Origin: Halorutilales archaeon Cl-col2-1
Lineage (GTDB): Archaea; Halobacteriota; Halobacteria; Halobacteriales; Afararchaeaceae
NCBI GenBank assembly: GCA_041891055.1
Contig: CP169074.1
Coordinates: 160,001 to 224,000 of the forward strand
Direction: 5' to 3'
Length of the DNA stretch: 64,000 nt
How positions within the stretch are numbered: position 1 is the first letter of the stretch; the number at the start of each line of letters is the position of its first letter. The notes under the pieces are model-generated. The model made no database searches and was not told the origin of the DNA. It saw only the letters and a list, made by a program, of their open reading frames with translations. A program made the translations under genes and the position numbers. Positions 22,045-60,847 of the stretch are shown here, piece after piece.

Positions 22045-22115
22045 AAATCGGAATAGTCGGCGAGGCTTAAGTCACCATCGCATCTCCGGAGTCTATACTA
22101 TGTTGACTGTTTGAG

Positions 22116-22192
22116 TGTCCGCAAAACCGAAGGTTTTGGGCCGTTCGCAAATCTTCGATTTACGAGTCCGCAAAATCAGAGATTTTGGGCCG
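22116..22192 (-). repeat. hairpin cluster at the tRNA-Pro 3' end: two 27-bp imperfect direct repeats around a GAA-loop hairpin
   Basis: CGGCCCAAAA..TTTTGCGGAC occurs twice, 49 bp apart. The central 22141-22166 matches 59447-59472 at 25/26 nt. Confidence 0.8.
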
Positions 22193-22258
22193 GCGCGGAT
22201 TCGAACCGCGGTCTATGCCACCCGAAGGCACAAGGATGCCAAGCTACCCTACCGGCCC
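22186..22258 (-). tRNA. tRNA-Pro(CGG)
   Basis: GGGCCGG/CCGGCCC acceptor stem, anticodon arm GTGCC-TTCGGGT-GGCAT, GGTTCGAATCC T arm; no encoded CCA. Confidence 0.96.
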
Positions 22259-45914: not shown

Positions 45915-45988
45915 GGGTTCGTGGTCTAGTCGGTTATGACACCGCCCTTACAAGGCGGAGGTCCCCGGTTCGATCCCGGGCGAACCCA
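45915..45988 (+). tRNA. tRNA-Val(TAC)
   Basis: GGGTTCG/CGAACCC acceptor stem, CCGCC-CTTACAA-GGCGG anticodon arm, GGTTCGATCCC T arm. Confidence 0.96.
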
Positions 45989-58061: not shown

Positions 58062-58769
58062 ATGGACGTGATTCCCGCGGTAGACATGAAGGACGGAGAC
58101 TGTGTCCAGCTAGTCCAGGGTGAGGAGGGAACCGAGAAGACCTACGGCGACCCCGTCGAGGCGGCTCAGACTTGGGTTGACGCGGGAGCCGAGACTCTCC
58201 ACATAGTCGATCTCGACGGTGCGATACACGGCGAGAGGAAGAACGCCGAGAAGGTCGGACGTATAATAGACGAGACCTCCGTCGAAGTACAGGTCGGCGG
58301 AGGAATCCGGAGCGTCGACGACGCTAAGTCCTTCTTCGATGCGGGGGCAGAACGCGTCATAATGGGGACGGCGGCGGTCGAGAATCCCAGGATAGTCGAG
58401 GACGTGAGCCAGCACGGCGACGTCATGGTATCTCTCGACTCGAAGAATGACGAGGTCGTAGTCGAGGGGTGGCAGGAGGGCTCGGGTCTGAGTCCCGTCG
58501 ACCTTGCGTCAAAGTTCGAGGAGACCGGCGCCGAGTCGATACTCTACACCGACGTCGACAGGGAGGGTCTATTAGACGGGGTTGAGACATCCACAGTGTC
58601 GCGGATCGTCGAGGAGGTGTCTATACCCGTCGTGGCGAGCGGCGGCGTTTCGAGCCCCGAGGACGTCGAAGCAGTCAGGGACGCGGGTGCTGACGGCGTC
58701 GTTATAGGAACCGCGCTCTACGAGGGACGTATGAGTCTTCAGGAAGCGAAGGAGGCAGCGAGACAGTAA
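58062..58769 (+). CDS. hisA: ProFAR isomerase HisA
   Basis: IPAVD, VDLDGA, QVGGGIRS, YTDVDREG, ASGGV. Confidence 0.97.
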   Translation: MDVIPAVDMKDGDCVQLVQGEEGTEKTYGDPVEAAQTWVDAGAETLHIVDLDGAIHGERKNAEKVGRIIDETSVEVQVGGGIRSVDDAKSFFDAGAERVIMGTAAVENPRIVEDVSQHGDVMVSLDSKNDEVVVEGWQEGSGLSPVDLASKFEETGAESILYTDVDREGLLDGVETSTVSRIVEEVSIPVVASGGVSSPEDVEAVRDAGADGVVIGTALYEGRMSLQEAKEAARQ

Positions 58770-58915
58770 GCTACCACGCCCTAAAGGGCGTGGCATTCAA
58801 CGTGGACTCCGGCTCTAACCTGTAGCGGTAGGTGAATATTCACCGTTCGCCTTCAACGTCCCGTTGTTCAAGCGCATGCCTACGGGTGCGCCTCCGCCGG
58901 TCGCTTTCTTGCTCC
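58746..58915 (-). ncRNA. predicted omegaRNA/sotRNA of element #1 (5' limit approximate); guide is antisense to the hisA 3' end
   Basis: 3' region conserved with element #2 (GTTGAA..GCGAACGG..CCTACC..GGAGTCCAC, then hairpin). Established TnpB architecture places the guide just beyond the right end. Confidence 0.65.
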
Positions 58916-60047
58916 GGCGGAGATACTTCATACCGACGTTCTTCGCCGCGTTGTAGTCTGCATGGTTCTCATACCCGCACTTCCGGCACTTGAACTTAGA
59001 ACCACTCCTGTTCTGCGGATGGGTGAACCCACACTTAGAACAACGCTGTGACGTATGCTCTGGGTTCTCTTGGGTAACTCGGACTCCGCGTTCCTCGGCT
59101 TTGTACTCTACATACTGATACAGACGGCGATACGCCCAGTCGTGCCAACGGTTCAGGTCATCACGTATCCGCTCTAAGTCTTCCATAGCTATAATGCTAC
59201 AGCCGTTCTCGACGGCTTCCTCAACTATCTCTTTAGCTACTCGGTGGAGGTGGTTCTTGAACCGTCCAGATTCCTTCTCACCGACACATTGGATGTTTTC
59301 GTGGGCGTAACGAGAACCATGTTCCTGCAACGACTTACGGCGTTTCTCGTACTCTCTCCGCCAATGGTTTAAGTACTCTATGCTCCAGTACGCTCCTGTC
59401 GAAGAGACGGCGAGACTACCCCGTGTGTTTAGGTCAACACCGAGAACCGTTCGCAAATCTTCGATTTGCGAGCCATCGAAGCTCCCGCTTCGAGACGTTC
59501 CGTTCTCGGTTTCCTCCGACTCTATCTCTTTTTTGACGCCTATATGGAGGTAGTATCTCCCGTCGCGGTAATGGAGCGTGGCACTCGTTTTCTCCCAGTC
59601 GTCCTGTAGGTACTCTGTCTGAGGATTGTCGTCACCGTCAGGTAAGACGTACTCGGCTTCCACACGACAGTTTACCGTAGAGAGGGTACACGAACCGTCC
59701 TTGTAGGTTACAGTCCGTGCGTCGTAACGGACGACATTCGACGTGAACTGTGGCTTACTCGTCCTCTCTCCGTTCTTCAACCGTTCCACGCAACCTTTCA
59801 ACGCTTCAGCCGCGAGGTTACGTGCCGCTTGTACGTGGTTCGCCGGTAGGTCTGTGGAAGCTCTTACGTCTTCGTAGGTCAGTTCGTGGAGTTGAGACTT
59901 AGACGTAACCACGTATTCGTCGGCGTGCCACGCTACGTCGGCTACGTACTGGCACGCCTTTTTGAACTGGTAGAACGTCTCCTTGAGGTCTTCGTGACGT
60001 TCTTCGGGTACGTCTAACTTTACCTGTACGGTGCGACGTATCTCCAC
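58815..60047 (-). CDS. tnpB: RNA-guided endonuclease TnpB
   Basis: RuvC GVDL, MEDL and HADYNAAKN motifs intact; CSKC/CRKC zinc ribbon. Confidence 0.95.
   Translation of the reverse strand: MEIRRTVQVKLDVPEERHEDLKETFYQFKKACQYVADVAWHADEYVVTSKSQLHELTYEDVRASTDLPANHVQAARNLAAEALKGCVERLKNGERTSKPQFTSNVVRYDARTVTYKDGSCTLSTVNCRVEAEYVLPDGDDNPQTEYLQDDWEKTSATLHYRDGRYYLHIGVKKEIESEETENGTSRSGSFDGSQIEDLRTVLGVDLNTRGSLAVSSTGAYWSIEYLNHWRREYEKRRKSLQEHGSRYAHENIQCVGEKESGRFKNHLHRVAKEIVEEAVENGCSIIAMEDLERIRDDLNRWHDWAYRRLYQYVEYKAEERGVRVTQENPEHTSQRCSKCGFTHPQNRSGSKFKCRKCGYENHADYNAAKNVGMKYLRRSKKATGGGAPVGMRLNNGTLKANGEYSPTATG
59448..59495 (-). repeat. 48-bp twin-hairpin insertion, in frame within tnpB
   Basis: Minus strand TCTCGAAGC-GGGA-GCTTCGA-TGG-CTCGCAAATC-GAA-GATTTGCG-AACG with GAACG duplicated; adds SRSGSFDGSQIEDLRT. 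Confidence 0.8.
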
Positions 60048-60148
60048 AGTTCATATATAGGGGTATATATTTATATGCTTAGTGGTTAGAGTTAAGTTGA
60101 CGAGAGTCCAAGACGGTCTATGGAACAAGTTAGCTCAGTAGCACGACG

Positions 60149-60196
60149 TTGTGGAGCTTTGCTCCACAGCCCTCGAAAACGAAGTTTTCGAGAACG
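60149..60196 (+). repeat. 48-bp twin-hairpin insertion in the left-end region of element #1
   Basis: TTGTGGAGC-TTT-GCTCCACA-GCC-CTCGAAAAC-GAA-GTTTTCGAG-AACG with ACG duplicated; absent at the equivalent site of element #2. Confidence 0.72.
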
Positions 60197-60241
60197 CATT
60201 CCTCCCGCACCTAAAGGTGCGGGTATCCTGCTGTGGTACCT

Positions 60242-60847
60242 ATGACTCAGCAAGACACAGACAGAACAGGCGAGTTCGAGAGACAGACACGAGAGACTAG
60301 TATCGAGGTCGAGATAGACGTCGACGGTGTCGGAGACTCCGACGTAGACACGGGCATCGATTTCTTTGACCACATGCTCGAAGGCTTCTCGAAACACGGT
60401 CTCTTCGACCTTAAGGTCAAGGCGGACGGTGACTTAGAGACCGGAGACCACCACACTGTCGAGGATGTCGGCATCTGTTTAGGCAGGGCTTTAGAAAACG
60501 CCCTCGGAGACAAGGAAGGAGTCAGAAGGTTCGGAGACGCCTCGGCTCCCTTGGACGAGTCAGTCTCGACGGTCGTCGTCGACATCAGCGGACGTCCCTA
60601 CTTCGTCGAGGACGTCTCCGACGAGTTAGAGCGTGAGAAGATAGCCGACCTCTCGACTCAGATGGTGACGCATTTCTTCAGGTCACTCGCCACGAACGCG
60701 AGTCTGACACTCCACGTCGAGTCCAAGGGAGACAACGACCACCACGTGGTTGAGTCTCTCTTCAAGGCTTTCGGGCTCGCCTTAGACGAGGCTACACGTA
60801 TAGACGAGAGAAAGAGAGGAGTTCCGAGTACGAAGGGAAAACTCTAA
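60242..60847 (+). CDS. hisB: imidazoleglycerol-phosphate dehydratase
   Basis: [31 protein letters not shown]. Confidence 0.97.

Follow-up and report, generated by a model that had tools for sequence, protein, structure and literature searches.

The 64-kb stretch of the genome of Halorutilales archaeon Cl-col2-1 analyzed here (the window; C1:160001-224000) carries three units of about 50 nt, each folding into two neighboring hairpins, which we call units 1, 2, and 3 (Table 1). Units 1 and 2 lie in an insertion sequence (IS), the former inside its tnpB gene and the latter between the left-end palindrome and the tnpB start, and unit 3 adjoins and overlaps the encoded CCA end of tRNA-Pro, where its borders are ambiguous by a 9-nt repeat. 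The genome (G000, with C1 and C2 among its four contigs) is 2.06 Mb long and 99.5% complete, and its encoded proteins are acidic and halophile-like; the main comparison is with a sister species of the same genus (G001, assembled in 120 contigs). An earlier note on this DNA had described the three units, at 59448-59495, 60149-60196, and 22142-22190, and the letters at all three places agree with its description. On folding with DNA energy parameters and 10-nt flanks, each unit gives two hairpins (-17.9, -16.1, and -12.9 kcal/mol). A covariance model (R1), built from a 36-unit alignment of other or identical-family copies elsewhere in the genome, was run over the whole window with filters off and found exactly these three units, the next best match scoring 15.4 bits.

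The units belong to a large family that is far above chance expectation. On contig C1, perfect triloop hairpins with a stem of at least 8 bp number 240, versus 59 in a third-order Markov control, and clusters of at least two hairpins number 95 versus 3; across the whole genome there are 180 adjacent perfect hairpin pairs and none in the Markov control. Fifty-eight perfect pairs have CG on both sides, with CG-to-CG periods of 48 nt (15 units), 49 nt (27), 47 nt (3), 51 nt (4), 46 nt (1), and 54-57 nt (8), and 48 of these 58 perfect units read CGTC...AACG on one strand (canonical units). The family plan, with carets marking the borders, is CG^TC-hairpin 1-(T)GGC-hairpin 2-A-ACG^, and its length is 47-51 nt, rarely up to 59 nt. 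A search for the second hairpin that does not demand pairing, since three stem positions are left free on each arm (GCTCNNNAATCNNNGATTNNNGAACG), gave 39 matches in the genome versus 0 for the reversed control; by visual count, about 34 of the 39 have these free positions paired, and a perfect first hairpin lies just upstream in 36. Further copies are likewise plentiful with R1, which has 138 matches in the genome at E<=0.01, about 75 of them full length and above 40 bits.

Among the stems of the 48 canonical units, 23 types form first hairpins and 19 form second hairpins, and these are combined in 38 ways; a single first hairpin is found with up to four different second hairpins, and the two hairpins within a unit differ in all 38 combinations. 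This diversity, together with the pattern count, bears out the proposal that the family is conserved in architecture and not in sequence. Stems are 7-9 bp long, begin at the foot with TCG, CGA, ACA, or CTC, and end on the loop side in ..ATC/GAT... The bases before hairpin 1 are CGTC, CGTCC, or CGTCA in 36 units, CGT in 10, and CGTAT in 2, and the outer end of hairpin 2 is (A)ACG, i.e., CGT(T), in 48 of 48. Most loops have 3 nt (first hairpin, 40 of 48 units; second hairpin, 43 of 48), and they are pyrimidine-rich in the first (TCC 8, TTT 8, TTC 6, TAC 6) and purine-rich in the second (GAA 9, AGA 7, AAA 6; yet TTC 8), as expected for a head-to-head dimer of one kind of tagged hairpin. They vary too widely among units for the C-GNA-G or C-GAA-G triloop, which the earlier note had described, to be a defining feature.

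Two variant forms accompany the family. A longer subfamily of 58-59 nt (CGTCC-CCAGAACGC..-TGTGCGA-ACGAGACGC..-CAACG) has GC-rich stems and a 7-nt linker, with copies at C1:518038-518096, C1:1827060-1827118, C1:130702-130759, and C2:58120-58178. A six-hairpin array, whose unit ends in AAAG and not AACG, occurs three times in the loop of an IS end palindrome (C1:533469-533608, C1:979447-979586, and C2:51551-51690), with one copy directly after the only tnpA of the genome; a shorter version with two hairpins lies at C2:69963-70006.

Nine comparisons of filled and empty sites show that a tiny non-autonomous element inserts as a whole unit at CG, often within (A)ACG or CGTC, as had been surmised from the three copies in the window. 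The inserts are precise and 48-54 nt long. Inserts are bordered by CG at both ends, and an empty site that has CG has a single one, which agrees with the earlier remark that the terminal (A)CG repeats the preceding bases. Three pairs of paralogous IS ends (A, B, and C) differ by exactly 51, 49, and 49 nt. In two pairs the insert interrupts one arm of the hairpin at the IS end (CACCCG^CC-taaa-GGCGGGTG and GCCTCGGGG-tcaag-CCCCG^AGGC), and the target in pair A is a hairpin of the type of the window IS left-end palindrome, in a paralog. The tnpB site occupied by unit 1 (site 1) carries an insert in four paralogs, which encode proteins 49-84% identical to that of the window copy; in two of these paralogs the inserts are 100% identical although the flanks are only about 70% identical. 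The same site is empty in two further paralogs and in the 89%-identical IS copy of the sister species (ACC GAG AAC GGA ATG ATT CTC). About 55 nt upstream, at site 2, a different 51-nt unit in the opposite orientation is present in the sister-species copy and in one paralog, and the window copy is empty. Unit 2 is missing, as judged by eye, from the related IS end C1:335395-335485, and the tRNA-Pro flank has one hairpin in the sister species versus three here, a 49-nt difference with borders ambiguous by 9 nt.

The remaining two comparisons concern genes outside IS elements. In the archaeal S-adenosylmethionine (SAM) synthetase gene (C1:43751-45094), a 54-nt unit encoding DVRESEDSRAHEDSKSPR (18 amino acids) separates NTADDY from DEGT. 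Both species of the genus have it, whereas it is missing from five of the five other genera aligned, and the match lengths in six further genera searched are also about 18 amino acids shorter. An M24 peptidase gene (C1:1620737-1622023) carries a 48-nt unit (+16 amino acids) in this genome only, the 96%-identical sister-species ortholog being without it, and its junction reads CAC GAC G[...]GA GAG when filled versus CAC GAA GAA GAG when empty. With the 16 amino acids added to TnpB, these cases confirm that the units can add peptides to proteins in frame. A tyrosine-recombinase gene also holds two in-frame units. All units in long open frames have lengths divisible by three, versus only 25 of the 58 perfect units overall; this reflects survivorship and is no property of the element itself: units survive in a gene where their length is a multiple of three. 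Four of the nine junction repeats are longer than CG, namely GAACG at tnpB site 1, GACG/CGTC in the SAM synthetase and M24 peptidase genes, and AACG in pair C; the tRNA-Pro junction repeat is 9 nt.

Within the window, unit 1 reads CG^TC-TCGAAGC ggga GCTTCGA-TGGC-TCGCAAATC gaa GATTTGCGA-ACG and encodes SRSGSFDGSQIEDLRT, so that ...TENGT-VLGVDLN... in TnpB becomes ...TENGT-SRSGSFDGSQIEDLRT-VLGVDLN.... It sits in an older, tnpB-coding hairpin, where empty tnpB paralogs read accgagaacggagtgGTTCTCGG. Units 1 and 3 lie on the minus strand, as first described; unit 2 had been placed on the plus strand and is better modeled on the minus strand, where it reads CG^TT-CTCGAAAAC ttc GTTTTCGAG-GGC-TGTGGAGC aaa GCTCCACA-ACG. 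By matching the CTCGAAAAC hairpin of unit 2 to hairpin 2 of units 1 and 3, the earlier note therefore probably mis-oriented it. The sister-species copy of the IS carries unit 2 with one substitution. Next to unit 3, the third hairpin of the tRNA-Pro array resembles a copy of the tRNA-adjacent hairpin with a compensatory change.

Table 1. Twin-hairpin units of the window and the features that surround them (positions count from the first letter of the window).
Feature	Position	Strand	Remarks
Third hairpin of the tRNA-Pro array	22122..22138		CAAAACC gaa GGTTTTG
Unit 3	22142..22192	-	R1 52.5 bits; part of the three-hairpin array at tRNA-Pro
tRNA-Pro (CGG)	22186..22258	-	ARAGORN
IS605-type insertion sequence, tnpB only	58770..60243	-	Borders approximate; between hisA and hisB
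IS near-terminal right-end palindrome	58774..58793		CCACGCCC taaa GGGCGTGG
tnpB open reading frame	58815..60047	-	410 amino acids, intact despite unit 1; Pfam Cas12f1-like_TNB, E 1.2e-21
Older tnpB-coding hairpin, unit 1 in its loop	59440..59509		CCGAGAAC (59440-59447) with GTTCTCGG (59502-59509)
Unit 1 with flanking CG	59448..59497	-	R1 60.5 bits; 48-nt in-frame insert in tnpB
Unit 2	60147..60196	-	R1 36.4 bits on the minus strand versus 21.2 on the plus strand
IS near-terminal left-end palindrome	60204..60223		CCCGCACC taaa GGTGCGGG

The units show a preference for places in or beside hairpins, most notably the palindromes at the ends of IS200/IS605-type elements and the genes within them, in line with the earlier suggestion that they favor structured DNA. 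Twenty-nine of the 58 perfect units have a tnpB or tnpA match no more than 1 kb away, versus 4.8% of 5000 random positions, and units are found within end hairpins beside tnpA genes in three genomes (this one and two others). Reconstructed empty sites fold at -6.7 kcal/mol, versus -4.6 kcal/mol for random CG sites (p=2e-6). The preference is not for loops: a narrower idea, that units sit in hairpin loops, was rejected, as pairing across the junction is 0.33 in empty sites versus 0.45 in random CG sites. The left flank is very often a hairpin followed by (G/A)ACG and so resembles the right end of a unit, which gives tandem arrays with an AACGTC junction; arrays pile up because every unit ends in a fresh ACG target.

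With respect to orientation, 17 of 18 units flanking tnpB are opposite to the gene strand, many of them at the same site of related IS elements and hence not independent. Along C1, units are oriented in blocks (minus at 78-372 kb, plus at 466-840, minus at 915-1018, plus at 1080-1262, and mostly plus at 1621-1930), with about 9 runs versus about 16 expected by a rough count. The blocks track neither the single orc1/cdc6 of the chromosome (C1:1,519,494) nor the extremes of GC skew, which lie near 130 kb and 1,500 kb. Units also change in place: two otherwise identical paralogous arrays (C1:35557 and C1:1208170) differ by a flipped loop, ttc versus gaa, and by a compensatory change of A:T to T:A.

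Natural populations differ at the tRNA-Pro array (window positions 22100-22192). Metagenome contigs there show four states, among them a short one like that of the sister species (X2 and X3), a third variant (X5), and one with an extra tandem unit (X1). In X1, the run closest to this genome, a contig goes back 49 nt, i.e., it contains an extra tandem 49-nt repeat. These length states are read from assembled contigs, so that copy numbers are tentative and uncovered stretches are uninformative.

Within the class Halobacteria, full-length R1 matches (38-52 bits) occur in 125 of 151 sampled genomes and in 52 of 57 genera. Ten examples from other genera all have the form CGT(C/T)-hairpin-linker-hairpin-AACG (ATCG in one) and are 52-59 nt long, with a TTGGC linker in six. 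The strict second-hairpin pattern has 39 matches in this genome, 36 in the sister species, and otherwise almost only matches in two other genera; it is found in 6 of 41 relatives and in 4 of 401 genomes of the class. This pattern is narrow, and the wide spread is visible only with the structure-aware model. In the species collection, the strict pattern has 33 loci, 24 of them in records of Halobacteriales or Euryarchaeota, including Halorutilus salinus and several Halobacteriales metagenome-assembled genomes, and nine single matches elsewhere, about as many as chance would give. One viral contig (L118, IMG/VR, 14 kb) has a single exact match of the pattern. In four other genera (L109, L111, L112, and L114), the same 53-nt type of unit stands between near-identical flanks, preceded by ..ggaataccagtNagtcgt and followed by ctggcagagggtt.., suggesting that it rides inside, or repeatedly hits, a conserved mobile element.

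How the units move is a matter of interpretation. The explanation in which we place moderate confidence is a cut-and-join at CG that acts on single-stranded DNA and recognizes hairpins, with a trans-acting HUH-Y1 transposase as the leading candidate enzyme. The unit is non-coding and is a head-to-head dimer of two tagged hairpins, CGTC-stem-loop-stem and stem-loop-stem-AACG, joined by a short GGC linker. It may move as single-stranded DNA whose two hairpins are recognized by shape and not by sequence, and a hairpin-specific enzyme supplied in trans would cut and rejoin it at CG. That enzyme might be the HUH-Y1 transposase of a resident IS200/IS605 element, a candidate to which the data do not tie the units. 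Selection for foldable copies, with template switching within the palindrome, could account for the diversity of stems with kept pairing and for the flipped loops. The genome has one IS200-type tnpA, at C1:979038-979397 and beside a tnpB. No RAYT-type gene was identified in it, the sole Y1 gene being of the IS200 type, and no RAYT-specific profile was run. A variant in which hairpin 1 is copied from a hairpin at the target was abandoned, since identical hairpin-1 types are found at unrelated sites and the two hairpins do not resemble each other in pair A.

Several observations weigh against this enzymatic explanation. Across 151 genomes, R1 matches and a Y1 TnpA (PF01797) occur together in 86, matches only in 39, TnpA only in 16, and neither in 10, so that 39 of the 125 carriers are without an IS200-type TnpA and there is no association (odds ratio 1.38, p=0.50, not corrected for relatedness); co-occurrence does not sustain the link to HUH transposases that the earlier note had drawn and that, taken overall, is only partly supported. 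Two near-complete genomes have 19 and 13 matches and no TnpA. The unit hairpins, of the NNNNNATC-nnn-GATNNNNN type, are unlike the IS end palindromes (CCCGCACC-taaa and CCACGCCC-taaa), and the cut sites would sit just 2-4 nt from the hairpin feet; those of IS608 lie much farther from them. At four of nine junctions the shared sequence is longer than CG, at 4-9 nt, which fits template switching also. The tandem 49-nt growth of the tRNA-Pro array in one metagenome population is slippage, not transposition. As to kept pairing, the sister-species copy of the SAM synthetase unit has three stem-breaking substitutions, uncompensated. In the 36-unit alignment (A1), 107 cells are changed on both sides versus 27.6 in shuffles (0 of 500 reach 107), a count inflated because its units were chosen as perfect hairpins; the unbiased evidence for pairing is therefore the count of GCTCNNNAATCNNNGATTNNNGAACG matches.

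Some of these points lead to an alternative that we consider rather unlikely, namely spread with no dedicated enzyme, by replication copy-choice. A nascent strand stalled at a hairpin and ending in ...(A)CG would re-anneal to the (A)CG that precedes a unit elsewhere, copy that unit as far as its terminal ACG, and return; the same process within one palindrome would keep stems perfect and flip loops, and slippage between units would expand arrays. The junction repeats that often exceed CG, the variation of the tRNA-Pro array in 49-nt steps between populations, including the tandem repeat of X1, and the near-identical paralogous arrays with a flipped loop and a compensatory A:T to T:A change speak for it, as do the lack of association between unit presence and TnpA and the absence of a resolvase from this genome. 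Copy-choice fits less well with the great regularity of the insert ends (CGTC start and AACG end in 48 of 58 units, a period of 48 or 49 nt in 42 of 58), and CG alone is shared at five of nine junctions. Whole units in unique genes distant from donors would, moreover, require an ectopic switch of exactly one unit.

Two further mechanisms would also leave CG at either end of every insert, where empty sites have a single CG. One is double-stranded cut-and-paste: the unit would be a miniature inverted-repeat transposable element, bounded by terminal inverted repeats of 3-4 bp (CGTC/CGTT), that duplicates a 2-bp CG target and is moved by a DDE transposase encoded elsewhere. The ends of the units are indeed quasi-symmetric, but the inverted repeat is merely 3-4 bp, and stems that vary freely while pairing is kept argue for folding of one strand and not for recognition of a duplex sequence; we know of no transposase family with a CG-specific 2-bp duplication, and hold this to be improbable. 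The other is a serine recombinase of the IS607 kind that would cross a circular unit junction (AA-CG-TC) with CG targets at the dinucleotide. Its two-base crossover would leave CG on both sides, and the targets do resemble either half of the AACGTC junction between tandem units. No Resolvase-domain match exists, however, in this 99.5%-complete genome or in the carriers G059 and G076 (G001 and G034 have one each), and the species-specific insertion in the M24 peptidase gene is present here despite that; of all the explanations we regard this one as the least probable. Hardly more credible is that the units are host-selected functional hairpins, such as transcript ends, RNA stabilizers, or protein-binding sites, and not selfish DNA. 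A single hairpin directly after tRNA-Pro is common to both species, and many units lie downstream of genes, as such functions would have it, but units also stand within coding sequences in either orientation, their presence differs between close relatives, their stems decay in place, and they match no Rfam family.

A broader and more tentative proposal, possible but in our opinion doubtful, is that the Halobacteria as a class carry a family of twin-hairpin elements of about 50 nt that encode no transposase and do not depend on IS200-type TnpA for their spread; the agent would be replication template switching at hairpin-stalled forks or an unrecognized hairpin-specific host enzyme. They would then be parasites of the ends and genes of TnpB IS elements that occasionally add peptides to essential proteins, and, if this is true, they would be among the smallest mobile DNA units known.

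The units are a real mobile element of the REP/BIME-like and SMR-like type of palindromic repeat, and "undescribed system", as the earlier note had it, is too strong: their plan parallels bacterial CGTC-REP dimers and RPEs, and their behavior parallels SMR-A and terminal-only PATEs of Haloquadratum. As far as the available part of its description goes, the superfamily of CGTC-tagged REPs, which form head-to-head dimers and include Rickettsia RPE-4 and RPE-6 and Neisseria dRS3, carries CGTC as an unpaired tag on the outer side of short, perfect stem-loops, whose stems are of about 8-9 bp (here 7-9) (Di Nocera, De Gregorio and Rocco, 2013, PMC3733652). In that account, too, most repeats are dimeric, the two hairpins, usually unlike each other, lying 1-5 bp apart with their tags facing outward; certain families are located within other palindromes; RPE-4 and RPE-6 have in-frame genic copies, which add 20-30 amino acids in bacteria; and no dedicated transposase is reported in the part available (PMC3733652). 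The haloarchaeal units differ in their loops, mostly of 3 nt (4-5 in bacteria), in a second tag that is CGTT, and perhaps in stems that may not start with the complementary A/T residues described for the first and second stem positions of bacterial families. They also differ in having archaeal hosts, the text available listing bacterial phyla only, and in clustering at the ends and genes of IS200/IS605 elements, whereas bacterial CGTC repeats are described in that text as not lying beside transposase genes (PMC3733652).

Closer by host are the small mobile repeats (SMRs) of Haloquadratum walsbyi, SMR-A (HqIRS42, 43, and 55) and SMR-B (HqIRS40 and 41), which, in the accessible part of the original description, are transposase-free haloarchaeal repeats with inverted ends and a mode of mobilization that is called enigmatic (Dyall-Smith et al., 2011, PMC3119063). 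SMR-A resembles our units in having no evident target duplication (here just the ambiguous repeated CG) and in strongly favoring the palindromes near the termini of PATEs and IS605-type transposons as insertion sites (here pairs A and B and unit 2). SMR-A is, however, about 110 bp long and the shortest SMR-B 80 bp, in contrast to 47-59 nt, and the prominent inverted terminal repeats of SMR-A contrast with only CGTC/CGTT plus two hairpins here (PMC3119063). The same source describes terminal-only PATEs of 52 bp (HqIRS46, an ISHwa23 derivative) that are likewise about 50 bp, non-coding, apparently mobile, and linked to IS605-type elements. Those result from a deletion between IS or PATE end palindromes and keep one IS-type palindrome, unlike our units, which have two hairpins dissimilar to the end palindromes of the host IS (PMC3119063). 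The units are set apart from the Haloquadratum SMRs and PATEs by these descriptions, not by sequence comparison.

The REP, BIME, and REPIN repeats of Proteobacteria, moved by RAYT (TnpA-REP), are also comparable. According to the portion of the report available, REPINs also spread as a doublet of inverted palindromes, form mosaic arrays with alternating linkers, and have in-frame copies within the transposase genes themselves; they are about twice as long as the haloarchaeal units, and REP/RAYT systems have a GTAG tag that is absent here, the tags being CGTC/CGTT (PMC6006769). In the literature searched, mostly without subscription journals, we found no description of a twin-hairpin element of about 50 nt in haloarchaea.

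These units bear on how palindromic repeats without a transposase move, be they bacterial REPs and RPEs of the CGTC type or haloarchaeal SMRs. The genus makes a clean system for this question: about 75-100 copies are present in 2 Mb, the sister species offers dated sites, filled or empty, in unique genes, this genome has a single HUH transposase as candidate and lacks serine recombinases, and populations in nature vary by entire units. The loop in SAM synthetase shows that such essential enzymes can accommodate peptides encoded by repeats, i.e., by selfish DNA. Units occupy both the genes of TnpB elements and the ends that bear their guide RNAs, and so may modulate TnpB nucleases. They will also confuse gene calling and repeat annotation in haloarchaeal genomes.

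Rfam has no family on the units; within positions 58700-60400, the only trace is a weak HgcC match (E 0.14) on the IS right-end hairpin. At the gathering threshold, the Rfam scan of the whole window gave only a tRNA-Val (45915-45988), tRNA-Pro(CGG) not being among the matches. In the sister species, hisA ends and hisB begins in a shared ATGA, with no IS between them; the IS that carries units 1 and 2 sits exactly at this point. Here, hisA has a new stop and hisB another N-terminus (compared with MNPSNQTETETPRAGSF), yet both frames are open.

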